DNA of 24,000 nt from a virus (IMGVR_UViG_2541047916_000002), one strand, 5' to 3'; shown: positions 1,369-23,040, counted from the stretch's first letter. The notes: generated by a model from the sequence alone, not told the origin. A program made the numbers and translations.

Positions 1369-1444
1369 GCCGATATAGCTCAGTTGGTAGAGCAGCGCAT
1401 TCGTAATGCGAAGGTCGTAGGTTCGACTCCTATTATCGGCACCA
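1369..1444 (+). tRNA. thrW: tRNA-Thr (anticodon CGU)
   Basis: 76-nt cloverleaf GCCGATATAGCTCAGTTGGTAGAGCAGCGCATTCGTAATGCGAAGGTCGTAGGTTCGACTCCTATTATCGGCACCA with a CGT anticodon loop and CCA end; thrW is a known integration site for P4-type integrases. Confidence 0.9.
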
Positions 1445-1609: not shown

Positions 1610-2824
1610 GTGAAACTCAATGCCCGTCAAATAGACACAGCCAAGCCAAAAGAGAAGGCTTACAAGCTGGCCGATGGTGGCGGTTTGTATCTCTTGGTAA
1701 AACCTAATGGAGGTAAATACTGGCGACTTAAATATCGTGTAGCTGGTAAAGAGAAGCTATTGGCACTAGGTGTGTATCCTGAGGTTACTCTAGCCGATGC
1801 TCGGGCAAAACGTGAAGATGCGAAAAGAGGTATCGCTGGTGGTATCGATCCGATGGAAGCGAAACGAGAGGAAAAGATTGCCCGGGAAACGCAGTTAAAC
1901 AACACCTTCAAAGATATTGCCCTTGAGTGGCACAGCAGCAAATTAAAAAAATGGTCTGCTGGTTATGCTTCAGACATCCTCGAAGCCTTCAACAAAGATG
2001 TGTTCCCTTACATTGGCAAAAAACCAATCGCCGAAATCAAACCACTTGAACTTCTGAATGTGCTGCGGCGCATCGAGGGGCGCGGTGCGACAGAAAAAGC
2101 CAAAAAAGTGAGGCAGCGGTGCGGGGAAGTTTTCCGCTATGCAATAGTCACTGGTCGCGCAGAGTATAACCCTGCACCAGACCTTACTAGCGCGATGCAA
2201 GGCCATGAATCTAATCATTACCCTTTCCTTACGACCAAAGAATTACCTGATTTTTTCAAGGCATTGTCCAGTTACTCAGGAAGCGCATTGGTTGTTATGG
2301 CGGCTCGTCTACTGATTATCACCGGCTTGCGAACTGGCGAACTACGTGGCGCATTATGGGATGAAATTGATTTCAACAAGGCTATATGGGAGATACCCGC
2401 TTCACGTATGAAAATGCGGCGGCCTCATATTGTGCCATTGTCTGAGCAGGCTCTTTCGCTTATTGGGAAGATTAGAGAAATAACAGGCAATTACCCTCTT
2501 ATGTTTCCCGGGCGCAATGATCCAAGGAAAACAATGAGTGAGGCCAGCATAAACCAAGTGTTTAAGCGCATTGGCTACGCTGGACGTGTAACTGGTCATG
2601 GGTTCCGACACACTATGAGCACGATTTTGCATGAGCAGGGCTATAACACCGCGTGGATAGAAACGCAGCTCGCTCACGTTGATAAGAACTCAATTCGTGG
2701 CACATACAACCATGCGCAATATCTGGATGGACGGCGGGAGATGCTTCAATGGTATGCCGACTATATGGATTCTCTCGAGCATGGCGGAAATGTGGTGCAT
2801 ATGGTGTTTGAAAAACACGCATGA
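1610..2824 (+). CDS. tyrosine recombinase/integrase, P4 type (GTG start)
   Basis: 404-aa ORF next to the tRNA; the arm-binding N-terminus and catalytic C-terminus (RHTMST...HxxR...Y region) are typical of P4-like integrases. Confidence 0.85.
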   Translation: MKLNARQIDTAKPKEKAYKLADGGGLYLLVKPNGGKYWRLKYRVAGKEKLLALGVYPEVTLADARAKREDAKRGIAGGIDPMEAKREEKIARETQLNNTFKDIALEWHSSKLKKWSAGYASDILEAFNKDVFPYIGKKPIAEIKPLELLNVLRRIEGRGATEKAKKVRQRCGEVFRYAIVTGRAEYNPAPDLTSAMQGHESNHYPFLTTKELPDFFKALSSYSGSALVVMAARLLIITGLRTGELRGALWDEIDFNKAIWEIPASRMKMRRPHIVPLSEQALSLIGKIREITGNYPLMFPGRNDPRKTMSEASINQVFKRIGYAGRVTGHGFRHTMSTILHEQGYNTAWIETQLAHVDKNSIRGTYNHAQYLDGRREMLQWYADYMDSLEHGGNVVHMVFEKHA

Positions 2825-3251: not shown

Positions 3252-3455
3252 ATGGCTAATTACAATTCATTAATTCGTCTCTCTGAAGTTCAAAGGCGAA
3301 CTGGTTATAGCAAAGCATGGATTTATCGTCTTATTAGTCAGGGGAGGTTCCCTAAACAGGTAAAAATTGGAAGTCGGGCAATTGCTTTTGTTGAGTCTGA
3401 AATAGATGAATGGATTGAGAAGTGTATATTAGAATCTAGAGACGAGGTGGCCTGA
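3252..3455 (+). CDS. alpA: AlpA/Vis-family DNA-binding regulator (prophage excision/transcription regulator)
   Basis: 67-aa protein with the AlpA-type HTH (LIRLSEVQRRTGYSKAWIYRLISQGRFP); sits just downstream of int as in P4-like elements. Confidence 0.8.
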   Translation: MANYNSLIRLSEVQRRTGYSKAWIYRLISQGRFPKQVKIGSRAIAFVESEIDEWIEKCILESRDEVA

Positions 3456-7580: not shown

Positions 7581-7944
7581 AAATGCAGAAATGGCGCTTA
7601 GCTCCGCAATCGGAGAGCAGGTGGCAAAGATTGCTGGTGCTGTGTGGATTCATAACCTTCATTCTACTGGTGAAGAGAAAATGGCAATTCAGACGCCAGA
7701 GGGACGCACCATTACTACATCTCTGAAGCCGTCAGATGTTTGTGATCTGATTTGCGCATTCATGTACCCAGCAATGAGGACTGCCCACGGCGATAAGTGG
7801 AAACTTGCGACAACCGCTGAATTTGATATGTGGCTAAACAATGATGGCATGCTGACTGATTACGGAATAACCAAGTGGCAGATGCTGGTTAGCCATATCG
7901 CAAACGCTATAGACCACGTGGGGTACGGTGATGCGAAACATTGA
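7573..7944 (+). CDS. hypothetical protein (123 aa)
   Basis: GGGAGG SD; overlaps the upstream stop. Confidence 0.5.
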   Translation: MRENAEMALSSAIGEQVAKIAGAVWIHNLHSTGEEKMAIQTPEGRTITTSLKPSDVCDLICAFMYPAMRTAHGDKWKLATTAEFDMWLNNDGMLTDYGITKWQMLVSHIANAIDHVGYGDAKH

Positions 7945-10423
7945 TCTTATCCGTCAGGTTATCAGTGCGTCTGAAAACAACTGGCCTCATGTGCTGGGCT
8001 GCCTGAACATAAATGTCCCTGACTCTCCGCGCCGTCATGCTCCCTGCCCTGCATGTGGGGGCAAAGATCGATTCCGGTTCGATGACAACGGGCGCGGTAG
8101 CTTCATCTGTAATCAGTGCGGCGCTGGTGATGGGCTGGATTTAATTAAACGCGTAAATAACTGCGACACAACAGAGGCGGCGCTTCTTGCCGCTGATGTT
8201 CTGGGTATTGATTACCGGACAACGGAAACACCAGAAGCCACCAGCCAGAAACGGGAACAACTGGAAACCGAGCGCCAGCGACGCGAACAGGAGCGCCTGA
8301 AAAGGGCAGAGAAGGACGAACAACAAAGACGGGATACGTTTTCCCGTCAGTTTGATGACATGCGCAGAAAGGCTGTAAACGGCAAATCTGATTATCTGGT
8401 TGCGAAAGGGGTAGGTGATTTTACATTCCCCGTGTTGCCCGATGGATCTCTGTTGCTGGCGCTGGTGGATAAATCCGGCGCAGTAACAGCAGCACAGACT
8501 ATTACCTCACATGGTGAAAAAAGACTCCTGACAGGTTCAGCAAAGCGGGGGGCATATCACGCCATAAACGCACCAGAAACAACACAGAGCATCTTAATCG
8601 CAGAAGGGCTGGCAACGGCATTATCTGCCCATTTAATTCGTCCAGAGGCGCTGACAGTGGCGGCGATTGATGCCGGGAACCTGTTATATGTCGCCCAGGT
8701 ACTGCGGGATAAATTTCCTTCAGCACAAATCATCATTGCTGCGGATAACGACCACAGCGAAGGAAGACAAAACACGGGGAGAATAGCAGCAGAAAAAGCA
8801 GCTTTATCTGTTTCTGGATGGGTGGCATTACCCCCGACAGATCACAAAGCAGACTGGAATGATTACCACCAAAAACACGGCATTAAATGCGCCACAGAAG
8901 CGTTCAATAAGTCAATGTACCAACCACAGGGTAATGGCGTGAAACAGGAGCCACAGACCATTGAGGGAAGCGATTTTAAGGTTATGGATACCGACCCACT
9001 GAAACCAAGAATAGAAAGCCGCGAGGATGGTATTTATTGGGTATCTCCGAGAGCTGACAGCCAGAGTGGAGAAATCATCAATAACGAAAGCTGGTTATGT
9101 TCTCCGTTAAGCGTTATCGGTACTGGCAGAGACGATAAAGACCAGTATCTCATTCTTCGCTGGCTGTCGTTTGGTTCTGAAACGCCGACAACCGCTGCCA
9201 TTCCACTGGCTGATATTGGTGAACGTGAAGGATGGCGCACACTTAAAGCTGGTGGGGTAAATGTCACGACCAAAAGCAGCCTCAGAGCAATACTGGCAGA
9301 CTGGCTACAACGCAGTGGCTCTCGTGAATTGTGGCGTGTTGCTCATGCCACTGGCTGGCAATGCGGAGCGTACATCATGCCTGATGGGGAAATCATCGGA
9401 ACACCTGAAAATCCTGTGCTGTTCAGCGGGAGAAGCTCAGCCGCAGCCGGATATACCGTCTTAGGGAGCGCGAAAAGCTGGCGTGATAACGTGGCGCGTC
9501 TGGCCTTTGGTAACTATTCAATGATGACCGGGATCGGCGCAGCACTGGCAGCGCCATTGATTGGGCTGGTGGGCGCTGACGGGTTCGGCATTCATTTCTA
9601 TGAGCAGTCGAGCGCAGGTAAGACCACCACGGCAAACGTGGCGAGCAGCTTATACGGCAACCCTGATTTACTGCGGCTGACGTGGTACGGAACCGCGCTG
9701 GGGCTGGCAAATGAGGCCGCCGCCCACAATGACGGACTAATGCCGCTTGATGAAGTTGGTCAGGGCGCTGATCCTGTCAGCGTTTCACAGTCTGCCTATG
9801 CGTTATTTAACGGTGTAGGGAAACTGCAAGGCGCTAAAGATGGTGGAAACCGGGATCTAAAACGTTGGCGTACAGTGGCAATCAGCACCGGAGAAATGGA
9901 TTTAGAAACATTTATCGCTACTTCCGGGCGAAAAACCAAAGCCGGGCAACTGGTGCGACTGCTGAATATTCCGTTGAGTAAAGCAGTACGCTTTCACGAT
10001 TACCAGAACGGAAAACAGCACGCAGACGCACTGAAAGACGCTTACCAGCATCACCACGGCGCGTCCGGGCGTGAGTGGATTAAATGGCTGGCAGACCACC
10101 AGCAACAGGCTATTAAAACCGTTCGTGATTGCGAAAGCAGATGGAGAAGCCTGATCCCATCCGATTATGGTGAGCAGGTTCACCGTGTAGCCGCGCGATT
10201 TGCCATTCTGGAGGCCGCATTGTTGTTAGGCGAGGTTGTAACAGGCTGGGATGCTCAGACATGCCGTGATGCGATACAGCACAGCTATAACGCATGGTTG
10301 CGCGAGTTCGGCACAGGTAACAAAGAGCATCAGCAGATTATTGAACAAACGGAGGCATTTCTTAATGCCTATGGGCTTAGCCGTTTTGCACCATTTCCAT
10401 ACAGCCCGGCAGATTTGCCCATC
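7928..10423 (+). pseudogene. P4 alpha-like primase-helicase, N-terminal 832 codons, interrupted by an IS21-family insertion (the last two codons of the 833-aa ORF, 10424-10429, are IS-derived)
   Basis: Primase zinc ribbon (CPACGGKDRFRFDDNGRGSFICNQCGAGDG), Toprim (IAEG ... AADNDH), P-loop (SSAGKTT); the reading frame continues in frame at 12841 once the IS and one TSD copy are removed. Confidence 0.75.
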
Positions 10424-10488
10424 TATTAGACGTCAACTAGTTTTGCCGACTCGCGCCAACTATACTGGCCGCACCCTTCAGTGCGACA

Positions 10489-11244
10489 TCAAGTCGCGCT
10501 TGTTACTGCCTTCGCTGTCTTTTTCCTGTAGCTTTCACCTTTCAGTTCGAACATATATCCGTGATGGATCAGCCGGTCTGCCGCCGCCACCGCCATAGTC
10601 TCATCCACGAAGATGCTGCCCCACATGCTGAACGGATGGTTACTGGTTATCACCAGGCTCCCACGTTCATAGCGATGCGCTATTAACTCGAACAGTACTC
10701 CCGTTTCGGCGCTGTCGCGTTTGACATAGCCAAGATCATCCACCACTATCACCCGGTAGCGATCCAGTTTCAGTAGCAGCTCATTCAGTTTCAACTGCGC
10801 TCTGGCTTTACGTAGTTCCTGCAACAACTCTCCTGCGCTGTAGAACCGGGCCCGGTAGCCCTGGCCTACTACGCCATCCACGATCGCTGCCGCCAGATGG
10901 CTTTTCCCCAACCCGCTGGCTCCGAACAGCAGAACGTTTTCTCCTGCATCAACCCAGTCTGTCGTTTCACAGAGTTGCCGGAACTGAGCTCCATTCAGTT
11001 CCGGCACCTGACTGAAGTCGTATTCGCTTAGCGTTTTGGCAACTGGCAACCGGGCCTCCTTTTTATAACGACGCAGTTTTTCACTCTCGCGCCACAGGAG
11101 TTCTTCATTGCATAGCGTCAGAAGATAGCGCGATGGTGTCCAGCCTTCTGCCAGTGCTCGTTTTTCCAGAGCGTGCCATTCAGCTCCAACTCGTGTCAGG
11201 CGTAGTTTACGCAGGCTGCGTTCAAGGTGATGGATATTGCTCAC
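10489..11244 (-). CDS. istB: IS21-family ATP-binding helper IstB
   Basis: 251-aa ORF with Walker A GASGLGKSHLA; typical IstB size and position. Confidence 0.85.
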   Translation of the reverse strand: MSNIHHLERSLRKLRLTRVGAEWHALEKRALAEGWTPSRYLLTLCNEELLWRESEKLRRYKKEARLPVAKTLSEYDFSQVPELNGAQFRQLCETTDWVDAGENVLLFGASGLGKSHLAAAIVDGVVGQGYRARFYSAGELLQELRKARAQLKLNELLLKLDRYRVIVVDDLGYVKRDSAETGVLFELIAHRYERGSLVITSNHPFSMWGSIFVDETMAVAAADRLIHHGYMFELKGESYRKKTAKAVTSAT

Positions 11245-12740
11245 TGCGAACCTCCCTTGCCACGCAGTAGTTGCTCATAACTGCTCAGGTTATGCTGTTT
11301 CACATTGACTACCGGCAACGCCTTTTCCTTTATACCCAGGAAGCGCATCAGCCGGTGCAGATCCACGTTTCCCGGGGTATTCAGCATCTGCTCCATACCT
11401 TTTGCCACGACTGAGATATCGTCGTATCCTGCAGCCAGTTTCAGAGCATGTACCATCAGCCTGCCTGCCATGTCGGGTTCCAGATGATTACATAAGCGAC
11501 GCCACAGCCTCCGCCATTCATCGTCTGGCAGGATGTCATTTCTCAGCGTTGCATGGCAGAACGCACCGGGCTTTTTTGCCAGACTGTCGATCACATGTCG
11601 GAAGTCGATACGACGGGCCCGCGTCTTCCCTTTTTCTGGTCTGACACGTGGGCAGCTCATGACCTCGCTGCTGCCAACGTAACAGCTCAGACGATCGTCC
11701 CATAACCGGACCCGTAACAGTTGACCTACAAGCCGGGAAGGTACGCTGTAGACGACGTGCTTCACATTGATGGTACTGCTGCGGCTAACCCTCACAGTCA
11801 GCTCATCATAGTCAGCACTGCGACGAAGCGGCAGCGGTTTCAGATGAAGACGTTCTTCCTTGACCAGATCCTGATTGTTACGGTTGTGCCGCATAACCTG
11901 CTGAGTGATGAAGGCCTGATATTCTTCTATGGTGCTGAAGTCGTTACTGCCCCGCAGTATCAGCGCCTGACAGATACGCCTTTTCAGATGTCCGTGGGCA
12001 CTTTCAACCGAGCCATTTTCGTGGCCCCGACCGGCATTATTGTGTACGCCCTGCATTCCGTAGTGCTGACAGAGAGCAGCATAACGCTCAGTCAGCTCGC
12101 GGCGTCCATCTTCGCCCTGTTGTTTCCATGCTGCCCTCAGGCTGTCCGTTTTATGTTCTACCGGCACTCCGCCCAGTTGTCCGAGGGCTTCCTGCAGACC
12201 TTCAGCCAGAGCAGAGAAGCTCTCACCACCCAGCACAACCCGCATCCAGCTCCAGTGGCTCCATTCCAGACGGAAGTGATACAACTTATGCGCCAACAAC
12301 TTACCGGCGATGGTGACAACTACACCTTTCAGTTCAGTAAAGTCCGACAGACCTCGCAGACCGGGCTGATGTCGCTGGCGGAACATGACCTCCTGCTCTG
12401 CACCATACTGTAGCTTCCATTCGCGGACCCGCCGTTGCATTGTTCTTCGAAGGCTGTTGGGGTACTGGCCGGGATATTTATCCTGTAGCATCTCCAGCAG
12501 AGTTGTTGGTGTCAGAGCCGGCCTCTCTTTCAACAGAGGAACAAGCATGCTGTCCCACACAGCTTCCAGAGGATCTTTGCGTGTGCGCCAGTGCCGAACA
12601 CTGTTTTTTGCCCACTCTCCTTTTTCGATCCGACGACCAGAACGGACTGAGATACCAGCCTTCATGGCCGAGATATGCTGAGTTATACCTTTCTTACGCT
12701 GAGTCATATAGTAACTGACCTGAGAAGTATTGAGCGTCAC
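11241..12740 (-). CDS. istA: IS21-family transposase IstA
   Basis: 499-aa ORF with N-terminal HTH and a DDE-type core; 4-nt overlap with the downstream istB. Confidence 0.85.
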   Translation of the reverse strand: MTLNTSQVSYYMTQRKKGITQHISAMKAGISVRSGRRIEKGEWAKNSVRHWRTRKDPLEAVWDSMLVPLLKERPALTPTTLLEMLQDKYPGQYPNSLRRTMQRRVREWKLQYGAEQEVMFRQRHQPGLRGLSDFTELKGVVVTIAGKLLAHKLYHFRLEWSHWSWMRVVLGGESFSALAEGLQEALGQLGGVPVEHKTDSLRAAWKQQGEDGRRELTERYAALCQHYGMQGVHNNAGRGHENGSVESAHGHLKRRICQALILRGSNDFSTIEEYQAFITQQVMRHNRNNQDLVKEERLHLKPLPLRRSADYDELTVRVSRSSTINVKHVVYSVPSRLVGQLLRVRLWDDRLSCYVGSSEVMSCPRVRPEKGKTRARRIDFRHVIDSLAKKPGAFCHATLRNDILPDDEWRRLWRRLCNHLEPDMAGRLMVHALKLAAGYDDISVVAKGMEQMLNTPGNVDLHRLMRFLGIKEKALPVVNVKQHNLSSYEQLLRGKGGSQ

Positions 12741-12840
12741 GCCATTTCCTGTTGGATCATGTAAATGACACTCAGGTTACAAAACCGGCCAGAATAATCG
12801 GCGCCAGGCGGACTGAGTTATTGTCGTCTCATAGCCCATC

Positions 12841-13104
12841 AAAGATTTAGCCGGATACCGTCAGCGTGGAGAACATGACGAAAGCCCAATGATTTTCTAC
12901 ACATTCCCGGCCACATTTGAAAAGGAGATCGCATGTGGTTTCAACGCAAAACAGTTTGCTGAAGTGTTGAAAAAAGCCGGGATGCTAACCCCACCAAACA
13001 GCGGTCGTGGATACCAAAGAAAATCACCACGTATTCAGGGACGACAAATAAACGTTTATGTACTCAATTACCAGCCAGGAGATTATAACTCATCTGAAGA
13101 ATGA
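12841..13104 (+). pseudogene. C-terminal 87 codons of the IS-disrupted primase-helicase
   Basis: Open and in frame with the primase ORF across the restored junction (10423 joined to 12841); the ORF-track entry 12889-13104 is its ATG-started tail. Confidence 0.55.
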
Positions 13105-13129
13105 GCTTCTTCATGTGCGTAGAAAAGGT

Positions 13130-13240
13130 GTTGGTTCAGTTGGTTCAGTTGGTTCAATTTGTAAAGAGTATTGTTTTATAAGGATTTTATTCTTTTTATT
13201 GAACCAACACTGAACCAACAACACGGTATTTTGAACCAAC
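13130..13240. repeat. iteron cluster, putative island replication origin: 3x GTTGGTTCA, 43-bp AT-rich spacer, 3x TGAACCAAC
   Basis: Six 9-mers read directly, immediately downstream of the primase gene, as in P4/PICI-type ori arrangements. Confidence 0.55.
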
Positions 13241-13349
13241 ACAATGTGACTGAATTGATGCGCACAACACCTGGCTGGCATCAGAGAGTGTTTTACGAGA
13301 CTTTCGTAAAATCCTGTGTACAAGGGCGTGACGTTTTTGAAAGTGAGCA

Positions 13350-13366
13350 CTACGAAATTTTCGTAG
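13350..13366. promoter_or_regulatory. 17-bp palindrome CTACGAAATTTTCGTAG (putative protein-binding site)
   Basis: 8-bp arms around a central base; two related copies at 22149-22184. Confidence 0.3.
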
Positions 13367-13560
13367 TTCAAAAAACAGCCTCTGAGAAGTTGTTATGCCT
13401 GTTCAGCAAACCATCCGCATAGCTGATCGCGAATCAAATTACCAATGGAGCCAGAAGCAAGGGCAGAACTGAAAAGCGCCTGCCGTGAAGAGTAATGCGA
13501 CACCATAAATATAGTTTTTAGAGTCCATAAAAAACCTGTCAAAACCTGACACACAGAACG

Positions 13561-13593
13561 ATGCCACCAGCTACTGAGCGGTGGCATTTTTTT
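13561..13593 (+). terminator. intrinsic terminator (ATGCCACC-loop-GGTGGCAT followed by T7)
   Basis: 8-bp GC-rich stem plus a seven-T run; separates the ori region from the cargo module. Confidence 0.6.
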
Positions 13594-13688
13594 GTGCTAT
13601 TTGTTTCATATTTTGCAATTACGATGATGAATATTGCGATTTGTGAAACTATAATAACTGTTGTTTTATACAGTTCTAAGGGGGCGTT

Positions 13689-13850
13689 ATGGCTATTTCA
13701 GTAAAGCAGGTATTGATAAGTGAGAAGCAAATGGAAGCGATAAAGAAAATTCAGGAAGAGCAGCGTAAAAAATCAGGAATTGGAGTAGCGCCAACTCTGC
13801 ATGAAATTGCACGAGGGTTAATAGATAAGGCGCTGGCAGGCTGTATGTGA
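13689..13850 (+). CDS. small protein (53 aa), possibly a ribbon-helix-helix-type regulator
   Basis: Not in the ORF track (under 60 aa); AAGGGGG SD 5 nt upstream; TATAAT at 13650-13655; RHH assignment is a guess from size and predicted strand/helix pattern. Confidence 0.3.
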   Translation: MAISVKQVLISEKQMEAIKKIQEEQRKKSGIGVAPTLHEIARGLIDKALAGCM

Positions 13851-13866
13851 AAATGGATGGCATCGC

Positions 13867-14328
13867 ATGGAACTAAAATTTATTGATAACCCTGTGCGAT
13901 TACAGGCCTTTCTTAACGAGCCAGGCAATACCGAAAATATTGTTGAGCCGGGGCACACGTACTACATCAAGCCTGATGCGGTATATCTCGGCATCTACGA
14001 AGGATTAGTGCTGGCTGGCGTTCATGAAGTGCGTAACTTCTGGCATAGCGTTGTTGAATGCCATGCGGTGTACGACCCCGGATTCCGTGGTGAATATGCA
14101 CTGCAAGGGCATCGATTATTCTGCAAATGGCTTCTCGAAAACTCACCATTCCTTAACAGCATTACCATGGTTCCTGACACCACCAAATACGGACGGGCAA
14201 TTATCCGTTTGCTTGGCGCTACCCGTGTTGGTCACCTTGATGATGCTTATATCAGATGTGGTAAACCCGTCGGCGTAACGCTTTATCAGTTAACTCGGCA
14301 ACAATATAAGGAATTCAGCGAATGTTAA
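13867..14328 (+). CDS. hypothetical protein (153 aa), first gene of a virion-protein-like module (position equivalent to P22 gene 14)
   Basis: ORF translationally coupled to the next gene; no motif recognised. Confidence 0.45.
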   Translation: MELKFIDNPVRLQAFLNEPGNTENIVEPGHTYYIKPDAVYLGIYEGLVLAGVHEVRNFWHSVVECHAVYDPGFRGEYALQGHRLFCKWLLENSPFLNSITMVPDTTKYGRAIIRLLGATRVGHLDDAYIRCGKPVGVTLYQLTRQQYKEFSEC

Positions 14329-14975
14329 TTACCCACATAGCTCATAAACATCTCAATCGTGCCGTATACGAAAAAGGCGGTGATGGTGGTGCCTCTAAAG
14401 CTCAGGCGAAGGCCCAGCAGCAGGCAATTGATTTGCAGCGCGAGCAGTGGAATACGGTGATGAATAATCTCAAGCCGTATGCAGAAGTCGGATTGCCTGC
14501 TTTACAACAACTACAAGGACTGATGACTCTGGAAGGGCAGAATAAAGCCGCGAATGATTTCTTTGGTTCTGGTTTATATAAAACACAGGCAGATCAGGCC
14601 CGTTATCAGAACCTTGTCTCAGCAGAAGCTACCGGGGGGCTTGGCTCAACAGCTACCAGTAACCAGTTATCTTCCATTGCGCCCATGCTTTATAACAATT
14701 GGCTTAGTGGGCAAATGCAAAATTATGGAAACCTGCTAAATGTCGGGATGAATGCGGCATCAGGGCAGGCAACAGCAGGGCAACTCTTGCAGGGGCTTGG
14801 CGCTATTCGTGCAGGTCAGGCGCAGCAGCCATCCAGTCTTGCGCGTGGTATTGGTGGGGCGGCATCAGGCGCTTTAGCGGGTGCGCAACTTGGTTCCGTT
14901 GTTCCGGGTATAGGTAATGTCGCCGGGGCTATTGGTGGTGGGCTTATTGGTCTTGTTGGGGGGCTTGGATTCTAA
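14322..14975 (+). CDS. ejection-protein-like, P22 gp7-type (217 aa) with Gly-rich hydrophobic C-terminus
   Basis: Size, Q/A-rich composition, C-terminal glycine-zipper-like segment and gene order (217/473/701 aa versus P22 gp7/gp20/gp16 at roughly 229/471/609 aa); homology not verified. Confidence 0.45.
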   Translation: MLITHIAHKHLNRAVYEKGGDGGASKAQAKAQQQAIDLQREQWNTVMNNLKPYAEVGLPALQQLQGLMTLEGQNKAANDFFGSGLYKTQADQARYQNLVSAEATGGLGSTATSNQLSSIAPMLYNNWLSGQMQNYGNLLNVGMNAASGQATAGQLLQGLGAIRAGQAQQPSSLARGIGGAASGALAGAQLGSVVPGIGNVAGAIGGGLIGLVGGLGF

Positions 14976-16396
14976 TGGCGACATGGCAACTTGGCGGGCT
15001 GCCTAGCATGGCACCGCAAAATGATAATGCTCCTCGTTCTTCCGTTCCTCAGCCTGTGCAGTATCAGCAGCAGCCAAACGTAGGTTTAATGGCGCTACAG
15101 GGGCTAAGAGGCGTTGCTGAGATTAATCAGCAGGCACGTCAACAACAGCGTAAAGCAGAGTTTCAGAAAGCATATGCCGGGGCTTTTGAGTCTGGAGACA
15201 GAAACAAAATGCGCAGTCTTATTTCTGAGTATCCAGAAGAATTTGAAAGCGTTCAGAAAGGGATGGGCTTTATTGATGACGACCAGAGAAATTCTATTGG
15301 TCATCTTGCGACTAGTGCTCAAATCGCATCTTCGCTCGGAACTGGGGCATTTGGAAAATTCATAGCAGATAACGAAGATGAAATGCGTCGCTTGGGAATT
15401 TCTCCTGAGTCTGTTGCCGAAATGCATGTTAATGATCCACAGGGATTCCAGCGGCTTGCTGGTAGTATGGCACTGTTTTCTCTCGGTCATGAGAAGTATT
15501 TCGATATCAAAGATCAAATGGAAGGTCGGGATATTGAGCGTGGCAAGTTGGCAGAAACAATCCGCAGCAATCAGGCTGGCGAAGCACTTCAGGCGAGAGG
15601 GCAGGATATTAGCCGAGCAAATGCGTTAACGTCAGCATATGCACCAACAGCAGCAATGCAGAATTACAATCAGTACGCTCAAATGTTAAAGGCGGATCCA
15701 GAGGGGGCGGCGGCATTTGCGGCAGCGGCTGGAATTAATACAAACGCCAAAAAATTAATGAGTGTTAGAGAAAACGATGATGGCACTGTCACAAAATACT
15801 ACACAGACGGAAGTGAAGAGCAGGGAAAACTAAACCAGCCAATATCTGGAGATGGGTTTCGTCCAATAGCTTTGCCAACAGCCCAAAAGATCATGGAAAA
15901 GTCGCCAGAAGGGGCTAAAAAAGCTGCTGGATTTGCATACAGGGTTAGGGATGCTCTTGATTCAATAGATACACTGAAAGACCAGCTTAGCCCACAGCGA
16001 GTGGCGATCATTAATAATGCTTTGGGTAATGGGACGCTGGCTAACTTAACGCTCAGCCCAATAGAGCAGCAATACGTTGTTAATGCTAATGACGCAATAA
16101 TGGCAATACTCCGTCAGGAAACAGGGGCATCTATCCTACCAGCTGAAATGTCCAAATATTATCAAATGTATTTCCCTCAGCCTGGTGATTCCACAAAAAC
16201 CATTGATACCAAGCGCCGGAAGATGGAAAACCAGTTCAATTCGCTGAAAGCTGCTTCTGGTCGAGCTTATGATGCTTTGCGGGTTATTTCAGCAGTTGAC
16301 AGAGGAACTTCTTCTTCGTCGCAGACATTGCCGCAATCTGAGCAGGTATCACAGCCAGCAGCCAGCAGTAATTTTTCTTCACTATGGGGTGATTAA
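14975..16396 (+). CDS. ejection-protein-like, P22 gp20-type (473 aa)
   Basis: TAATG coupling to the upstream gene; Q/A-rich low-complexity protein of matching size and order. Confidence 0.45.
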   Translation: MATWQLGGLPSMAPQNDNAPRSSVPQPVQYQQQPNVGLMALQGLRGVAEINQQARQQQRKAEFQKAYAGAFESGDRNKMRSLISEYPEEFESVQKGMGFIDDDQRNSIGHLATSAQIASSLGTGAFGKFIADNEDEMRRLGISPESVAEMHVNDPQGFQRLAGSMALFSLGHEKYFDIKDQMEGRDIERGKLAETIRSNQAGEALQARGQDISRANALTSAYAPTAAMQNYNQYAQMLKADPEGAAAFAAAAGINTNAKKLMSVRENDDGTVTKYYTDGSEEQGKLNQPISGDGFRPIALPTAQKIMEKSPEGAKKAAGFAYRVRDALDSIDTLKDQLSPQRVAIINNALGNGTLANLTLSPIEQQYVVNANDAIMAILRQETGASILPAEMSKYYQMYFPQPGDSTKTIDTKRRKMENQFNSLKAASGRAYDALRVISAVDRGTSSSSQTLPQSEQVSQPAASSNFSSLWGD

Positions 16397-18501
16397 TGGC
16401 TAAAGCATGGAAAGATGTTATCGCTTCTCCACAGTATCAGGCGTTAGCACCAGAACAAAAAGCGCAGGCTCAAGAGCAATACTTCAATGAAGTCGTGGCC
16501 CCGCAAGCCGGAGAAAGTGTAGAGCAGGCTAAGCAGGCTTTTTATGCTGCCTATCCACTACCATCAACGAATGAAATAGACCGATCCCAATCAGCAACTC
16601 AAAATATTCAACATACATCATCTGATAATTCTCTTGCGTCAGGGTATGCAAAGTTAGCTACTCAGCAAAGAGAGGGGCTTGAGCGTTCAGCAGAACAGGG
16701 AGCCAGTCTTGGGGCTGCGATGCGCGATGCTATAACAGGCGAAAGCCGAATGACTCCAGAGATGGAGAGACTGCAAAATGTCGCCTCTGCCCCAGAATTG
16801 AACTCACTAAGCATGGATGCCCTAAAGGCTGGATGGTCTCAACTTTTCGGCTCTGACGCGTCTCAGGAAAAGATTCTTCAGGGAATGGGGGCGACATTAA
16901 GGCAGGATGAGAAGGGGAATACTATCGTTTCTCTGCCATCAGGTGATTATGCCCTGAACAAGCCGGGTTTATCACCGCAAGACCTGACTTCGTTTCTTGC
17001 TAATGCGTTGGCGTTTACACCAGCGGGCAGGGCTGGAACGGTGCTTGGTGCCATAGGAAAATCAGCAGCTACAGATTTAGCACTACAGGGAGCCACCAGC
17101 CTTGCTGGTGGAGAAGATATTGATCCGTTACAAACGGTAATTTCTGCTGGCATTGGTGGTATTGGTAAGGGGCTGGAAAATACAGCGAGTGCGGTTTCGA
17201 GGGCTGTTCGTGGTGATATGTCGCCTGAAGCAAAGGCTGCTGTCGACTTTGCATCGGAAAGAAATCTGCCGTTAATGACCAGTGACATGCTGAAAGATAA
17301 AACCTTTATGCAGAGTCAGGCTCAGACATTAGGCGAAAGAGTTCCTTTTTTTGGAACCGGTAAGAATCGGCTGAATCAACAACAAGCACGAGAAAATTTA
17401 GTCAGAACATTTAGCGATGGTCTGGGTGGCATTTCTGATAAACAGCTTTATGAATCTGCGACTAAAGGGCAACAAAAATTCATTGAGGCAGCAGGAAAGC
17501 GATATAACCGCATAATTGACGCTATGGGGGATACCCCTGTCGATCTCTCAAACACGGTAAAAGCTATCGACAATCAGATTGCCGTGTTAAGCCGCCCGGG
17601 CAAATCTCAGGATAGAGCCGCGGTAAAAGTCTTGCAGCAATTTAAAGACGATATCACCAGCGGACCAAATGACCTGCGTCTGGCGAGGGAAAACAGAACC
17701 GATCTTCGAAAGCGATTTATGGCGTCATCTGACACTGTTGATAAAGATACGCTCCAGAAAGCCAGCGATATTATCTACAAGGCATATACGGCGGATATGA
17801 AAAAAGCCGTAGCCAAAAATCTTGGAGCAGACGAAGCCATTAATATGGCAAGGGTTGATCGCTCATGGTCTAAATTCAATGACATGATGGGAAGAACGCG
17901 CGTTCAAAAGGCAATAGCCAGCGGCAAGGCCACGCCTGAGGATGTAACAAAACTCGTTTTTAGCCAAAGCCCATCAGAACGTTCTCAGCTTTACAGGCTT
18001 CTGGATGACAATGGTAGGCAAAACGCACGAGCGGCCATAGTTCAGAATGCTGTAGATAAGGCGACTGATCCGTCTGGAAATATCAGTGTTGAGAAGTTTA
18101 TTAATGCGTTACACCGGAACAGGAAGCAATCAGCAACTTTCTTTAAAGGCGTACATGGAAAGGAACTGGACGGCGTTATTAAATACCTCAACGATACAAG
18201 ACACGCGGCAAAAGCGAACGTTCAAAACTTAAATGGTCAGCAGCTTTATGGATTGTTAGTTGGTGGTGGCATCATAAACGCAGCAGTATTAGCGGGGATG
18301 CTAAAAACGGCTGCGTTTGTTGTTCCTGCTGCTGGTGCCGTAGGCGGAGCAGCGAAGGCATACGAAAGCCCTGTTATACGAAATGCCTTGTTACGTCTGG
18401 CAAATACGCCAAAAGGTAGCACAGCATATGACAGAGCGATCAGTACGGTCACACAATCGCTCACCAGAGTCGCACAGGCATCACAAAAAGAAGCTCAATA
18501 A
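16396..18501 (+). CDS. ejection-protein-like, P22 gp16-type (701 aa)
   Basis: TAATG coupling; hydrophobic Gly/Ala-rich C-terminal segment; position and size. Confidence 0.45.
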   Translation: MAKAWKDVIASPQYQALAPEQKAQAQEQYFNEVVAPQAGESVEQAKQAFYAAYPLPSTNEIDRSQSATQNIQHTSSDNSLASGYAKLATQQREGLERSAEQGASLGAAMRDAITGESRMTPEMERLQNVASAPELNSLSMDALKAGWSQLFGSDASQEKILQGMGATLRQDEKGNTIVSLPSGDYALNKPGLSPQDLTSFLANALAFTPAGRAGTVLGAIGKSAATDLALQGATSLAGGEDIDPLQTVISAGIGGIGKGLENTASAVSRAVRGDMSPEAKAAVDFASERNLPLMTSDMLKDKTFMQSQAQTLGERVPFFGTGKNRLNQQQARENLVRTFSDGLGGISDKQLYESATKGQQKFIEAAGKRYNRIIDAMGDTPVDLSNTVKAIDNQIAVLSRPGKSQDRAAVKVLQQFKDDITSGPNDLRLARENRTDLRKRFMASSDTVDKDTLQKASDIIYKAYTADMKKAVAKNLGADEAINMARVDRSWSKFNDMMGRTRVQKAIASGKATPEDVTKLVFSQSPSERSQLYRLLDDNGRQNARAAIVQNAVDKATDPSGNISVEKFINALHRNRKQSATFFKGVHGKELDGVIKYLNDTRHAAKANVQNLNGQQLYGLLVGGGIINAAVLAGMLKTAAFVVPAAGAVGGAAKAYESPVIRNALLRLANTPKGSTAYDRAISTVTQSLTRVAQASQKEAQ

Positions 18502-18519
18502 CTGGTTAGCCACGGATGG

Positions 18520-18939
18520 CTAATTTTTGTTCTTTGCTCTCATCCACAGGTAAAGAAGGGCAAGAACAAGACAAAAAACAGAGAATAGATAACCTACCTC
18601 ATATGATGCGCCAAAAAAATTAGCTATTGATACGGGCAAAAAAGCTGAAGCGATCAAAATTGAAAGGCAAAAAATAAGACCAGTAATATAGTTTATTAAA
18701 TTCTTAAATGAGAAACGTTTTGCTTGATTTATGGTCTTAGCGAACGATCGCTTAACGACGGATAAAAGCAAATAGATGGCGACAGTTGCTAATGCCCCTT
18801 TCCACCAGTCTGGATATAGTTTTGCGACAATCAGACCAAGGAAAACCATGATGACAGCCTGAGCATTCACACCAACCCTCCCTTTAGCGTTGTTTAGATT
18901 GGCAATCATCATATATCCAAGACATGGCATTTGGTACAT
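18520..18939 (-). CDS. small inner-membrane protein (about 139 aa, 4 predicted TM helices), in the position of a superinfection-exclusion gene (sieA-like by synteny only)
   Basis: Four hydrophobic helices in the translation; convergent with and 18 bp from the gp16-like gene; start uncertain (track ORF extends to 19107 with a TTG start). Confidence 0.45.
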   Translation of the reverse strand: MYQMPCLGYMMIANLNNAKGRVGVNAQAVIMVFLGLIVAKLYPDWWKGALATVAIYLLLSVVKRSFAKTINQAKRFSFKNLINYITGLIFCLSILIASAFLPVSIANFFGASYEVGYLFSVFCLVLALLYLWMRAKNKN

Positions 18940-19701
18940 AGCTTGGGTCGGGATTTCAAATCCGCCCCCGTTGATGGGGTCGTTACAGTACGCGCATATC
19001 CGCTTTATGTGAAACAGGAAGATTTTTCTGATATCACTGCCACAGCAAAACACCAATTTCGAGACAAGTACGCGCGCGAGGGGTATCAGTTGCAAAAAAT
19101 TTTGCAACTACGTCCGACCAATACACACACGATGGCGGGGGATACCATAAAACTGTTCTCTACATGAGACAGAGTGGTGGTGATGTGTTGATTATCGGCC
19201 TATATGCGCACAGGACGCGCTATGACAATGTTTTATGCGGGTACACCAATCACATGTATCTGGTGTGATAAATCGCGTTACATGACCTTTCATGTTGTGC
19301 TGGTGGTTATCACGACGTTCTGAATCTGGCTTTTGTCTGATATTTTGCGACAAGTACGCGCGCGTAACATCGAAATTATCGGATGGCGTATGTTGCTGGC
19401 AAGATAAAGTCGGCGTAATACAAAGGCGTTACTTGATAGCAGCAAGATTACAACAATGGTTGTTGAATTTGAGCGATGTAAGGAATTGATTTAGGGAGGC
19501 GCTGATGGCTAAAAAGTTCCACTACCAGCGGATGAATGCGCCAGCGATGGCCGTTTGGTAGTAAAAGAGGAGCCATTCCTCAATCAGTTGAATACATTAT
19601 GCCAACTAAATGGGTGGGGGCACTGTGTGGGTATTCAGCGGTGACGGTATTTTTTAAGCCAAGGACTATCCGTAGCAGGGGGACTCATTTTGAAATATTT
19701 A

Positions 19702-20139
19702 TCATATGTAACTTATTATTTTAGATAAAGATTTCCAGTTAAAGAAAAAAGTTATCATTGATATAATCAAATATGCCCCTGCGAGTAGCAGGGCATAATA
19801 ATCCAGAGGCAGATTGCTGACAACAGGGGCAAACATCGAGATCATTGCTAATAGGCAGGCTGTGATCAGCGTAGTTCCTGTATCAAAAAGCCCCTCAATA
19901 ATGCCTTTTAGTACTCCGTTACTTTTTAGAGCGCCTACAATTCCCTTTGAACTATCAAAGCTACTTAGCATGGTGACTGATGCCAAAACAAAACCAAAGA
20001 GAACTCCAGAAATAGTTGAAAGAGCACCAGCAGCCGAAATGACAGCATTGTGATCTAGGTCGTGTAATAAATGGGCACCAGCAATAGCCATAGCTAGAGC
20101 AAACAATGACTTGGCAGCAAACAATTTCCGAGAACTCAT
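19702..20139 (-). CDS. 4-TM membrane protein (145 aa), second gene of a two-gene AT-rich operon
   Basis: Four hydrophobic segments; 12-nt gap from the upstream 361-aa gene; long ORF in AT-rich DNA. Confidence 0.6.
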   Translation of the reverse strand: MSSRKLFAAKSLFALAMAIAGAHLLHDLDHNAVISAAGALSTISGVLFGFVLASVTMLSSFDSSKGIVGALKSNGVLKGIIEGLFDTGTTLITACLLAMISMFAPVVSNLPLDYYALLLAGAYLIISMITFFFNWKSLSKIISYI

Positions 20140-20151
20140 AATGTATTCCTG

Positions 20152-21237
20152 TTACGTTTGACTAACCAAATAGTACTGGGTTAGATACCTAAGGTTGTCA
20201 TTCTTTGCTTGTAGCATAGCATTTTTAACGTCAGTATCGGTCGGATACCCATCTGCTTGGATAGGCACCATCTTCTTTACCGTAAGAACTTCGTCTACAA
20301 GACTTTTCTTCTTTTTATCGCCCTGAGCAACAACATTTGCTTTCTCAAAAGTTAAACGACCATCACCACCAGGGAACTTTTCTAGCATCTCCTTAAGGCT
20401 TTTTTTAACGTCATCCTCAAGCCATCCCTTTGCTTTTCTTTTTAATGGAGAATGTCCGCGTAACGAAATAGTCAGGTGGCTTGAACTGGTGCCTCTGATC
20501 ATCTCAATCATCTGATTCGCGAACATTCCATCGAGTTGATACTGTGCGGCATTGAAGTTTCTTGGGATGGCCACAGAAATCTCGCAGCTTCTTAGATTGG
20601 ATCCAGTTTCGAGTAGTTCTTTGATGCTTTCTTCTTTCCAAATGGCTTCAAAAGAAACAGGGACTCCGCGATCACTGGAGTTGAAAAGAAGGAAGGCTAA
20701 GTCACTATGGCGTGGACCTAAATGATTTAAAGACAATACTAGAATGTCTGTCTGAGGATAATAAATAAAGTATGTACGTTCTGAAAGAGTCTTTGCCCCG
20801 GCTAGAGGGATTTTCTCTTCCACCCACTCTTTATCTGTAATATATGCCAGTGTTGCGCTTTTTCTTCTTCGAGACATGAATCCGAAGTAGGAGCCATCCT
20901 CGGGTGAGATGTCTAGAAAATGAATTTTAAGTTCTCTTTCACCAAAGTCTGCATAGTGGGTCATCTTGAAGTCTTTAGAACACCGATCATACAGATTTTT
21001 AAAGGCCTCTGCGGTTAACCCCTTGTTACTAGTGCGAATATTCTCAGAGCTTGTGTAAAAGCCCACCCTTACAGATTTCAAACTTTGATCTTTTGGTGCC
21101 ACAGTCATTTGAGCTCCATTGTACTCTGCGATAGTTTTTGCACACCTTGAAATCAAAATCTCCATGTCAGTCACGAGAAAATAACTATGGATGAAACCCA
21201 TCAAAGGCATTGAATACAGGTGGCTTTTGAGAATCAT
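20152..21237 (-). CDS. hypothetical soluble protein (361 aa), no recognisable domain; first gene of the candidate defense operon
   Basis: Uninterrupted 361-codon ORF in AT-rich sequence where chance ORFs of this length are very unlikely; operon partner is a 4-TM protein. Confidence 0.6.
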   Translation of the reverse strand: MILKSHLYSMPLMGFIHSYFLVTDMEILISRCAKTIAEYNGAQMTVAPKDQSLKSVRVGFYTSSENIRTSNKGLTAEAFKNLYDRCSKDFKMTHYADFGERELKIHFLDISPEDGSYFGFMSRRRKSATLAYITDKEWVEEKIPLAGAKTLSERTYFIYYPQTDILVLSLNHLGPRHSDLAFLLFNSSDRGVPVSFEAIWKEESIKELLETGSNLRSCEISVAIPRNFNAAQYQLDGMFANQMIEMIRGTSSSHLTISLRGHSPLKRKAKGWLEDDVKKSLKEMLEKFPGGDGRLTFEKANVVAQGDKKKKSLVDEVLTVKKMVPIQADGYPTDTDVKNAMLQAKNDNLRYLTQYYLVSQT

Positions 21238-21588
21238 CCTAACCTGGTGACGGTGGTTCGCATATCCTGATGGATGATCAGTGATTAATCAATGCGCCAA
21301 GCAGATGTGTCTATGTGTTTGTTAATCATTGCATGACAGTAGATCGACATGGGAGATCACGTTATATAGTTGAATTGTTAGGATATCCATGCACCGATCA
21401 ACTGACTAGGCTGATGTGCTTTTTAGCAGGTGCCATATAGTAGTTAGGCGGTTCTGTGAAATGATTACTGTTCCAGCATAACTGCGGCATAAAGCGGTGC
21501 TATATAAGCTATTTGCTGGCGGATTTAGTCTTCACCGTTCATATATGTAGTGACTATTTGACAGAGTGTTAGTTCACGGACACTTTTT

Positions 21589-21688
21589 GTTGGTTCAAAA
21601 TGAGTTGATGTTGGTTCAATATTTTAGAAAAAACACAATAAAAACAACGCTCTTTACAAATTGAACCAACTGAACCAACTGAACCAAC
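21589..21688. repeat. second iteron cluster (2x GTTGGTTCA, AT-rich spacer, 3x TGAACCAAC), inverted relative to 13130-13240
   Basis: Reverse complement of 21646-21691 is identical to 13124-13169 (46 bp: AAAAGGTGTTGGTTCAGTTGGTTCAGTTGGTTCAATTTGTAAAGAG), then about 80 percent similar. Confidence 0.5.
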
Positions 21689-21724
21689 ACCTTTTTGCTT
21701 ATCTATATAATCTGAGAGGCAGAA

Positions 21725-22012
21725 ATGATAAGGGACAGGAAAGCTGAAGAGCTGGAGTCAAAAGGGCTATACCGGAGAGCTGCCGCACGATGGGCAGAAG
21801 TCATGATGCTGGCAAATGGCGATAAAGAACGTGAACATGCAGCAAACAGGCGCTCTGAATGTATCCGTAAGGCGGCACGCCCACCAGCAACTACAGACAG
21901 ATTCGGAGATTTAAGACAGGCAGTTAAGCGAACTCATTCGGCTCTTGGTATGGATGAGGAAGCGAGAGGGTACTTCAGGCGTTATCGCGATAAAGATTGC
22001 CAGAGACAGTAA
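21725..22012 (+). CDS. PerC-family transcriptional activator-like protein (95 aa)
   Basis: Motif AEELESKGLYRRAAARWAEVM...REHAANRRSECI resembles the PerC family pattern; GAGAGG SD. Confidence 0.55.
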   Translation: MIRDRKAEELESKGLYRRAAARWAEVMMLANGDKEREHAANRRSECIRKAARPPATTDRFGDLRQAVKRTHSALGMDEEARGYFRRYRDKDCQRQ

Positions 22013-22059
22013 TGCTCTCTCTGTTTTGGCAAATTACCCTTCACTTTGAAGGGAGCGGA

Positions 22060-22370
22060 GCTATAAAAATGGTTTTAGGTACATTCCTCAAATTGAGGTT
22101 TCCGAAAATATCAGCGGGTTAGCGATTAATCTGGCGAGTAATTAAACTGCGAAAATTTCGTAGGGGGTTACGAAAATTTCGTAGGTCTACTCATGGTTTA
22201 GGCTTACTTTCCCGACATCCCCCAATGGGGGGTTCGAAATAATCAATGGGTTAGGCTTACCTCCCCCCATTTCCTGCATTGCAGGTTTTCGAAAGAATCA
22301 ATGGGTTAGGTCATCGTGCAAATTTGCACTCTGCCAGCCAACGCAATTTCTCGTTGGCGGAAATATCAGG
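22060..22370. repeat. ORF-free array of direct repeats near the island right end: ATGG(G)TT(T)AGG x4, TTCGAAA-nAATCAATGGGTTAGG x2, ACGAAAATTTCGTAGG x2, GAAATATCAG x2
   Basis: Repeats read directly; location fits the P arm of attR, where recombination directionality factor and host-factor sites would lie. Confidence 0.35.
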
Positions 22371-22541
22371 TATTTACTGAACGAACGGTCTACCCGCCTG
22401 TTCAACTACCAGTTGTACATGGCTGCTTTATGTGCAAATGGTGGTGAGAGAAAATTATTTGGGGGTACTTTTGGGGGTATCTCCAAAGATGTAATGGGGA
22501 AATGTCTTTATATATCAATGTATTTTTATTGTTTGTTTTGT

Positions 22542-22551
22542 TCCTATTATC
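22542..22551. other. right-end copy of the att core segment (TCCTATTATC, identical to tRNA positions 1428-1437)
   Basis: 10-bp direct repeat of the tRNA 3' region, followed by sequence homologous to the int-upstream region at 1446-1609. Confidence 0.4.
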
Positions 22552-22701
22552 AACGTCTCCCCAAGTCTACTCAAGTATTTAAAAACCTCTTATAATCAGT
22601 ATATTAATGCCCCTTTTAGTCTTTTGACGTCTATTTAAGTACCCCAAACTCTACAAGCAATTGAGGGGATTTGCTGTTCAGTTTAGTGGAGATACCCCCA
22701 A

Positions 22702-23040
22702 GTGAAACTCAATGCCCGTCAAATAGACACTGCCAAGCCAAAAGAGAAGGCTTACAAGTTGGCTGATGGTGGTGGTCTGTACCTCCTGGTAAAACCTGGT
22801 GGAGGAGAATATTGGCGTCTCAAGTATCGTGTAGCTGGTAAAGAGAAGCTGTTAGCACTAGGTGTGTATCCTGAGGTCACCTTAGCTGATGCTCCTGCAA
22901 AACTTGAAGAAGCTAAAAGAGGTATCTCTGGGGGAATCGATCTGATGGAAGTGAAGCGAGAGGAAAAGATTGCCCGGGAAACGCAGTTAAACAACACCTT
23001 CAAAGATATTGCCCTTGAGTGGCACAGTAACAAATTATAA
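22702..23040 (+). pseudogene. truncated second copy of the P4-type integrase (112 codons, about 90 percent identical to the N-terminus of the 1610 gene), remnant of a tandem island
   Basis: Near-identical N-terminal 112 aa and upstream region; homology ends abruptly at 23037 and the sequence becomes AT-rich. Confidence 0.7.

Follow-up and report, generated by a model that had tools for sequence, protein, structure and literature searches.

In the satellite phage P4, a requirement in cis and looping between the origin (ori) and a second site (crr) have been shown; crr is reportedly required in cis, and the initiator alpha is said to link the two (Flensburg and Calendar 1987; Ziegelin et al. 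1993). Several arrays of the same short repeats (iterons) are also present in iteron plasmids such as P1 (incC/incA), F (incB/incC) and R6K (gamma with alpha/beta), for which pairing or looping at a distance is established. In the phage-inducible chromosomal islands (PICIs) of Gram-negative bacteria, the origin was assigned to the DNA that directly follows the initiator gene on its 3' side, and plasmid maintenance was found to depend on pri-ori for EcCICFT073 (Fillol-Salom et al. 2018, PMC6092414). Here we analyze two iteron clusters in a stretch of 24,000 nucleotides of viral DNA (IMGVR_UViG_2541047916_000002, referred to as the window), which, judging by its gene content, carries an Escherichia coli PICI-type (PICI-like) phage satellite integrated at tRNA-Thr (thrW). 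We propose that these clusters represent halves A and B of a single composite PICI-type origin used by the primase-helicase of the island (Pri-Rep), split by 8.4 kb of accessory genes, and we place the probability of this reading at about 0.75. In the literature searched, nothing relevant to split or composite PICI origins turned up apart from PMC6092414.

The first-pass annotation of the window had pointed to a 9-mer, GTTGGTTCA/TGAACCAAC, recurring 11 times in two clusters. Our count agrees with this: 11 exact copies are present, while only 0.16 are expected by chance from dinucleotide-preserving shuffles, none of 100 of which reached 11. Six copies lie at 13130-13240 (cluster 1) and five at 21589-21688 (cluster 2), where a sixth iteron with one mismatch (gttagttca, 21568-21576) keeps the 21-nt register. 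Each cluster comprises three tandem iterons with a 9-nt period, a 43-nt spacer, and then two to three inverted iterons spaced 11 or 21 nt apart. The AT-rich, origin-like centers described in the annotation correspond to these spacers, with an A+T content of 84% in cluster 1 and 79% in cluster 2. The clusters are also mutually inverted, as had been claimed, with a perfect inverted run of exactly 46 nt (13123-13168 in cluster 1) and similarity extending beyond it: the repeat finder joined 55 nt at 96% identity with 43 nt at 79%, and 101 of 138 alignment columns are identical between the two clusters. Taken together with the comparisons below, the origin-like character of both clusters was borne out in the sense that both appear to be initiator-binding arrays.

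By its position, cluster 1 is a predicted canonical PICI origin. It starts 26 nt past the stop codon of the primase-helicase gene, which places it immediately 3' of the initiator gene as in the Gram-negative PICIs (PMC6092414). A scan of viral contigs with two tandem iterons as the query returned 120 loci (individual loci are referred to by L numbers), and in about 70 of them the array directly follows a primase-helicase homologue with 55-99% identity. A protein profile search yielded a second, species-level set of 79 loci from other Enterobacterales, 73 of which had enough downstream sequence. Most of these 73 carry an iteron array 27-90 nt past the stop codon of the homologous primase gene, and the position of half A immediately 3' of this gene is shared by about 60 species-level loci.

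The identity of cluster 2 emerges from the same relatives. An A and a B half are adjacent in 37 of these 73 loci, although some of the assignments are doubtful; they form a palindrome-like composite origin of about 280 nt, with a range of roughly 250-320 nt. Such a composite begins with an ACATGTG-type box, followed by the tandem iterons, AT-rich center and inverted spaced iterons of half A, a CTGGCTGGCA-type box, and half B. The latter runs in the order spaced iterons, AT-rich center, inverted tandem iterons and TTTTGCTTATATATAC-type box, with an open reading frame (ORF) starting 35-45 nt later. The halves have the same inverted geometry as in the window, and the architecture was also seen with at least eight other iteron sequences. 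Cluster 2 is homologous to the B half of these contiguous origins, including the B spacer and right flank, and perC begins 37 nt beyond its last iteron, with the outer box ending 14 nt ahead of the perC start codon. On the other side, the window carries both A-side boxes, the outer one and the one that separates the halves in the composites (Table 1). A and B thus appear to be long-diverged halves, both older than the split, and not recent copies of one origin.

The remaining loci of the census comprise five distant splits of 4.9-9.1 kb (in Lonsdalea, Rosenbergiella, Pantoea, Serratia and Cedecea), one or two short splits of 0.4-0.6 kb, 11 loci with only half A within at least 8 kb, and 16 loci that were unclear. 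Split geometry, with gaps of 0.39-9.1 kb, therefore recurs in other genera as well as in many E. coli islands, and a B half at a distance is in every case inverted with respect to A. The distant B has intact 3+3 iterons in five other genera, where the primases are 69-77% identical to that of the window. Because the iterons persist intact at this level of primase identity, the comparison argues that half B is maintained where its initiator is present.

Two loci have unusual arrangements. At L166 (Yersinia pekkanenii), three composite iteron arrays lie within 6 kb, at approximately -5.7, -1.1 and +0.05 kb from the primase stop, and the match to the primase extends over an unusual 3.9 kb; the locus suggests a duplication or insertion. 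In the viral contig L102, the outer flank of the distant cluster (12857-12977) is of the A type, and a gene for chloramphenicol acetyltransferase comes after it (13426-14103); this may be a marked or recombinant element.

Iteron sequences differ between lineages, the variants including GTTGGTTC, TGTTGTCT, TAACCCGT, GTCGGTTC, GTTGTCTC, TTATCCCA, AGTGTGTC, TAACCCAC and TTGTACCA, among others. For a covariation test, the 9-mer unit of each locus was defined solely by the two tandem copies closest to the stop codon, and units were compared in a rotation-aware manner. Of 48 loci, 30 repeated their own unit downstream in inverted tandem copies, compared with 5 of 627 for non-cognate units. At the protein level, the identity gap between same-iteron and different-iteron proteins is widest in the last ~60 residues (0.77 versus 0.49), and across 49 aligned homologues a C-terminal motif follows the iteron type, pairing GRGYQRKSPRI with GTTGGTTC, GRGYQGRV-RE with TGTTGTCT, DRLKKKALKK with TAACCCGT and KGITRKSLRI with GTCGGTTC. 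The closest comparison is that of L143 and L140, whose helicase regions are 85-100% identical in 60-residue windows; the sole difference in the aligned C-terminal binding region is this motif, and their iterons differ too. Together, the two covariations provide strong, albeit indirect, evidence from sequence that the C-terminal domain of Pri-Rep reads the iterons and that one protein reads both halves. Such an iteron "code" predicts that exchanging QRKSPRI for QGRV-RE would retarget the protein from GTTGGTTC to TGTTGTCT. A PDB sequence search with the C-terminal domain gave no significant match (the best, a designed protein, had E = 1.2), and a single-sequence AlphaFold2 model of the domain was unusable, with a predicted local distance difference test (pLDDT) score of 47. 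A structural link to the origin-binding domain of P4 alpha, which we had considered, was supported by neither.

Binding, firing and cooperation between A and B, as we infer them, would proceed as follows. Each half would represent a complete origin unit that presumably melts at its AT-rich stretch. Pri-Rep would bind the iterons of both halves with its C-terminal domain, the helicase domain would load at the AT-rich centers and the Toprim domain would prime, so that the excised island would have a two-site origin. Half B might fire in its own right, or it might assist A in cis by being paired with it through the initiator, as reported for P4 ori and crr. That half B is active in replication at all is a narrower claim, to which we give a little short of an even chance.

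Several observations weigh against the reading of the two clusters as halves of one working origin. The 11 species-level relatives with half A only imply that half B is not universally needed. Half B always lies 35-45 nt ahead of a gene start, with which a transcriptional role is equally compatible. The split forms of different genera have accessory genes in common, leaving the number of independent splits uncertain, and the initiator gene is disrupted in the window. Finally, five E. coli-type islands (L003, L004, L130, L137 and L138) retain the GTTGGTTCA cluster before perC despite a hybrid replicase, whose N-terminal primase part is 86% identical and whose C-terminal half is of the DUF5906 type (P4-alpha-like). 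In these otherwise nearly identical islands, no GTTGGTTCA array adjoins the replicase gene, and a homologue of the cognate C-terminal domain is not encoded anywhere. A different iteron, GGTGGTACAGG, occurs there in two clusters, one on either side of a pair of small ORFs. In L003 (9312-12915) and at the same coordinates in L004, these clusters lie at 11680-11800 and 12800-12915, which constitutes a second two-site layout. The persistence of B without its cognate initiator means that it can exist as an orphan, whether as a recent relic or in another role.

The boundary of the replicase swap sheds light on this persistence. It corresponds to window position ~13285, just past the A-side box, where homology with the islands carrying the other replicase resumes, and half B would have been retained because it is too far from the replicase gene to be replaced. 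In L138, most of half B is deleted and perC is kept. At 93-99% identity, the E. coli islands are too alike to separate selective retention from recency.

The transcriptional alternative holds that cluster 2 mainly controls gene expression, the initiator or some other protein on the tandem iterons beside the TTTTGCTTATATATAC box switching the downstream gene on or off, here perC. This would couple late or accessory expression to induction and could coexist with an origin function. Half B stands directly upstream of perC in all 16 perC loci, including two perC alleles that are only 54% identical, the ORF starts 35-45 nt past the B tandem iterons in lineages with different iterons, and half B is kept in the islands with a non-cognate replicase. 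That last observation cuts both ways, however, as a non-cognate replicase leaves no cognate binder for such control. Furthermore, half B displays the full anatomy of an origin unit, with an AT-rich center and spaced iterons that an operator would not need, and L138 keeps perC though most of B is gone. A consensus scan found no sigma-70-like promoter in 21200-22100, nor in or beside either cluster, so a promoter role of the TATATA box stays speculative. On balance, we consider predominantly transcriptional control rather unlikely, though it deserves to be kept in mind.

Cluster 2 could also be a functionless relic, carried away from A by rearrangement and not yet eroded in the young E. coli islands. 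The persistence of half B beside a non-cognate replicase would fit, as would the internal deletion in L138, the single mutated iteron found in several copies, including that of the window, the existence of A-only islands, and the degenerate distant B of L172. A relic does not readily account for the intact, inverted 3+3 distant B halves of the five other genera, since neutral 120-nt arrays would be expected to decay at that primase divergence, and in adjacent composites B retains the lineage-specific iteron. We regard this explanation as unlikely. If the distant half is indeed only a relic, the window would represent an ordinary rearrangement of a known origin type.

A third possibility is that cluster 2 acts as a negative copy-control or handcuffing locus, comparable to P1 incA or F incC, which titrates the initiator and pairs with the origin. 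In its favor, cluster 2 repeats the iterons of the origin-proximal array at a distance from it, a two-array layout that is established for iteron plasmids, and the covariation points to the same binder for both. Unlike typical control arrays, however, half B has its own AT-rich center and mirrors A, and a brake would have no obvious use in satellites, which need burst replication after induction. Copy control is therefore doubtful in our view.

The first-pass annotation had itself favored a duplication of the origin with cargo captured between the copies, or an invertible segment. In favor of a recent duplication are the 46-nt perfect inverted repeat and the varying gene content between the clusters among E. 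coli islands. The perfect 46 nt are, however, largely constrained iteron array, and beyond the tandem iterons the spacers, the distances between iterons and the flanking boxes are not alike in the two clusters. Each cluster matches its own half of the contiguous Enterobacterales composites, and on this half-specific homology we rejected a recent duplication, which now seems very improbable. The relatives with a single cluster and cargo elsewhere that the annotation had named as evidence against its own view were encountered in large number, as the 11 species-level loci with only half A within at least 8 kb and about 30 loci with A and B adjacent.

The annotation had also considered that the second cluster might belong to a separate, truncated element beside the island. 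A truncated second thrW island does follow, and the distant cluster of L102, with its A-like outer flank and cat gene, indicates that some distant clusters may be foreign. The attR core, however, places cluster 2 and perC within the attL/attR pair of the first island, ~850 nt inside attR, and the same arrangement of cluster, perC and island end is present in L003 at yicC-dinD without a neighboring element. We thus rejected an assignment of cluster 2 to the neighboring thrW island, and an origin in a separate element is hardly tenable.

Inversion of the 8.4-kb segment by recombination between the clusters, suggested by the inverted repeats of 46-55 nt that flank it, is the least credible option and was rejected, as the relative gene orientation is the same in all loci examined, Pfam annotation of the window proteins revealed no recombinase gene beside the repeats, and a synthetic inverted junction (the reverse complement of 13178-13580 joined to 21641-22060) searched against 5426 complete E. 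coli genomes had no contiguous match at ≥80% cover in any of 589 carrier genomes, which gave two separate pieces only. A partition-centromere or packaging-site role was set aside as well: Pfam annotation of the window proteins revealed neither par nor terminase genes in the island, and the C-terminus of the initiator covaries with the iterons.

The composite-origin reading is set in an island whose features are collected in Table 1. The genes follow the order proA, tRNA-Thr(CGT), integrase, AlpA-family regulator, AntA- and Ash-family genes, and Zn-ribbon/Toprim/DUF927 primase-helicase. The island has the integrase, attachment site and flanking direct repeats of a PICI, together with an alpA-type regulator and a rightward gene order, all genes from int through the gp16-like gene lying on the + strand. 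It measures 21.1 kb, or 18.7 kb without its insertion sequence (IS). Pfam annotation of the window proteins found no capsid, tail, terminase or lysis genes in the island; four P22-type ejection-protein genes are present, from which we suspect a P22-like helper phage.

Table 1 Features of the island and of the two origin halves in the 24,000-nt window
Feature	Position	Strand	Basis and remarks
tRNA-Thr (CGT), thrW; 3' end is the attL core	1369..1444	+	ARAGORN; core 'cctattatc' repeated at 22542-22551; context as proA-thrW of ABU 83972
Tyrosine integrase of the island	1610..2824	+	Pfam Arm-DNA-bind_3, Phage_int_M, Phage_integrase
AlpA-family regulator, Gram-negative PICI marker	3252..3455	+	Pfam Phage_AlpA, E 7e-20
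Primase-helicase (Pri-Rep), residues 1 to ~831, Zn-ribbon/Toprim/DUF927, IS-truncated	7931..10423	+	Pfam; N-terminal 359 aa 33% identical to P4 alpha, E 2e-41
ISEc10 (IS21 family, istA/istB) within the primase-helicase gene	10424..12833	-	Pfam IstB_IS21; boundaries by alignment to L001
Detached C-terminal 89 codons of Pri-Rep, predicted iteron-recognition domain, motif GRGYQRKSPRIQGRQ	12835..13104	+	tblastn 100% to L001 residues 830-918
Conserved outer box of half A, CATGTGCGTAG (family consensus ~ACATGTGAGG)	13112..13122	+	Between stop codon and tandem iterons in relatives with several iteron types
Putative origin half A (cluster 1)	13123..13248	+	Tandem iterons 13130-13156; AT-rich spacer 13157-13199; inverted spaced iterons 13200, 13211, 13232
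Conserved inter-half box, CCTGGCTGGCA	13270..13280	+	Same box between halves A and B in composite origins
Conserved accessory operon: 53-aa ORF, then gp14-like (DUF2824), gp7-, gp20- and gp16-like P22-type ejection genes	13689..18501	+	Pfam DUF2824, P22_gp7, Inj_translocase; PHROG DNA transfer protein/transglycosylase
Variable accessory stretch, three ORFs of unknown function in the window	18520..21237	-	No Pfam/PADLOC match; PHROGs 8552 and 7651
Putative origin half B (cluster 2)	21568..21695	-	Spaced iterons 21568 (one mismatch), 21589, 21610; AT-rich spacer 21619-21661; tandem inverted iterons 21662-21688
Conserved outer box of half B, CTTTTTGCTTATCTATATAAT (family consensus ~TTTTGCTTATATATAC)	21691..21711	+	Adjoins B tandem iterons in lineages with different iterons
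PerC-family regulator gene	21725..22012	+	Pfam PerC, E 3e-33
attR core, island right end	22542..22551	+	Repeat of tRNA 3' end

The insertion sequence is an ISEc10 copy with 100% identity over 2410 nt to that of CFT073. Judging from the alignment, it severs the predicted iteron-binding domain from the rest of Pri-Rep, and the copy of the island in the window is probably replication-defective. With Pri-Rep cut by ISEc10, the origin could work only with an intact initiator supplied in trans. An intact primase-helicase gene of 918 amino acids is found in E. coli ABU 83972, which carries the same island without the IS.

Beyond attR, a tandem remnant of a second thrW island occupies 22552-24000. Its first part (22552-23037) is 86% identical to the attL-int region, and it contains an integrase fragment (22702-23040, Pfam Arm-DNA-bind_3 only), a stretch of 29-31% G+C and a gene of the MarR family. 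The remnant is followed in ABU 83972 by the gene for the vat autotransporter. Just inside attR, the region 22101-22310 contains three copies of the 23-mer TTCGAAA(T/G)AATCAATGGGTTAGG together with other short repeats, which may be arm-type sites of the integrase. A palindrome, CTACGAAATTTTCGTAG, occurs at 13350-13366, upstream of the small ORF, and at 22150-22164 and 22171-22185, between perC and attR. It was considered as a link between the two clusters and rejected, as it is confined to the E. coli island type and lies outside the origin; it may be the site of a regulator or excision factor.

The DNA between the clusters starts just past the inter-half box, near 13285. Its description in the first-pass annotation as compositionally heterogeneous cargo is accurate only in rough terms. 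The G+C content ranges from 0.41 to 0.52; about 5 kb, comprising the small ORF and the operon of gp14-, gp7-, gp20- and gp16-like genes, are common to the E. coli island family, and only the 2-3 kb between the gp16-like gene and half B are truly variable. The notion of a cargo hotspot stands for this variable stretch, where gene content differs among near-identical islands, and does not extend to the conserved ejection operon. In sister islands the stretch contains AbiD (L002 20188-21165), a CapP-like ImmA/IrrE peptidase pair (L003 18351-19214), IS elements and unknown genes, and its three ORFs in the window may be uncharacterized defense genes. Of 2127 E. coli genomes with a match, just 11 span 80% or more of 12850-22600, while each cluster region is carried by about 550-590. 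The second cluster marks the right-hand edge of the variable, defense-type stretch in E. coli islands, which aids cargo annotation.

The ejection-protein genes form a full set of gp14, gp7, gp20 and gp16 homologues within 13867-18501. Relatives with the same primase family (L082 5402-8113 and L102 7854-10568) have a gene for a tape-measure protein (TMP_3) of ~900 amino acids at the equivalent place. Satellites of this kind seem to encode DNA-delivery proteins of their own that suit the type of helper. No description of satellite-borne ejection-protein sets of this kind was found in the literature searched.

In relatives with adjacent composites, the accessory genes lie downstream of both halves, so that bracketing by the halves characterizes a lineage and is no universal arrangement. 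Downstream of half A, three gene orders were seen: B-perC-cargo, perC-cargo-B and cargo-B-perC. These are cyclic rotations of each other, which tandem duplication followed by deletions would yield. A more ambitious interpretation is that the split is functional: the halves would load the primase-helicase and pair or fire convergently or divergently, and the bracketed cassette would be replicated first or over-replicated after helper induction. Though we consider this improbable, it would, if true, constitute a built-in gene-dosage device for the ejection-protein and defense cassette, with the conserved halves doubling as homology arms for cargo swaps between satellites, and would explain both the splits in at least six genera and the cyclic rotations of gene order.

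PICI-type satellites are widespread carriers of defense and virulence genes, yet knowledge of how they replicate comes from a small number of tested origins. The comparisons suggest a family-wide picture for Toprim/DUF927 satellites in Enterobacterales, that of a composite origin made up of two mirror-image units. A close counterpart is EcCICFT073, which has the same succession of int, alpA, pri-rep and an origin immediately 3' of the initiator gene, with a perC-family gene downstream. Its origin (L220 14010-14236, iteron CTGTCTACC) likewise has mutually inverted tandem arrays at both ends, 190 nt apart. An SSB gene and the perC-family gene lie downstream of that origin. The two differ in their initiator, a "DNA primase family protein" of 584 amino acids in EcCICFT073 and a 918-amino-acid Toprim/DUF927 protein here, as well as in the iteron. 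The halves are contiguous there and 8.4 kb apart here, and the P22-like ejection genes belong to the present island. The EcCICFT073 origin was tested experimentally; that of the window is predicted from its sequence.

Iteron plasmids resemble the island in having several arrays of one initiator's iterons separated by genes. Their initiators, however, are of the RepA/pi type, winged-helix proteins that recruit the host DnaB, in contrast to the self-contained primase-helicase found here, and they are plasmids and not integrative satellites. In the pathogenicity islands of Staphylococcus aureus (SaPIs), which are Gram-positive PICIs, the origin follows rep on its 3' side and an AT-rich region lies between two sets of iterons, although initiator family and hosts are unrelated. 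Their origin and initiator have reportedly been swapped together as a specificity module (Ubeda et al. 2007), and we know of no split or composite mirror architecture described for them.

P4 offers a parallel for two sites at a distance. According to record NC_001609, crr directly follows the alpha gene and contains type-1 iterons within two 120-bp repeats, and the same iterons recur in ori, 4.7 kb away; the island similarly has two separated clusters of one iteron, halves A and B, the first adjoining the primase-helicase gene. The N-terminal Zn-ribbon/Toprim primase domains are homologous, at the 33% identity given in Table 1. The helicase of alpha, on the other hand, is of the D5_N/DUF5906/Pox_D5 type, while that of Pri-Rep is DUF927, so that the domain architecture is not that of alpha. 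A C-terminal origin-binding determinant has reportedly been located in P4 alpha (Ziegelin et al. 1993; Yeo et al. 2002), and the covariation points to a similar placement in Pri-Rep. In P4, crr consists of direct repeats and ori also has type-2 repeats; here the two units are mirror images and are contiguous in most relatives. The A-only relatives imply that not every member of this family needs the second site. A composite origin split by up to 9 kb would parallel the long-known but poorly understood ori/crr arrangement of P4 in a second and much larger family, and comparison of the two could help explain why satellite primase-helicases use two sites.

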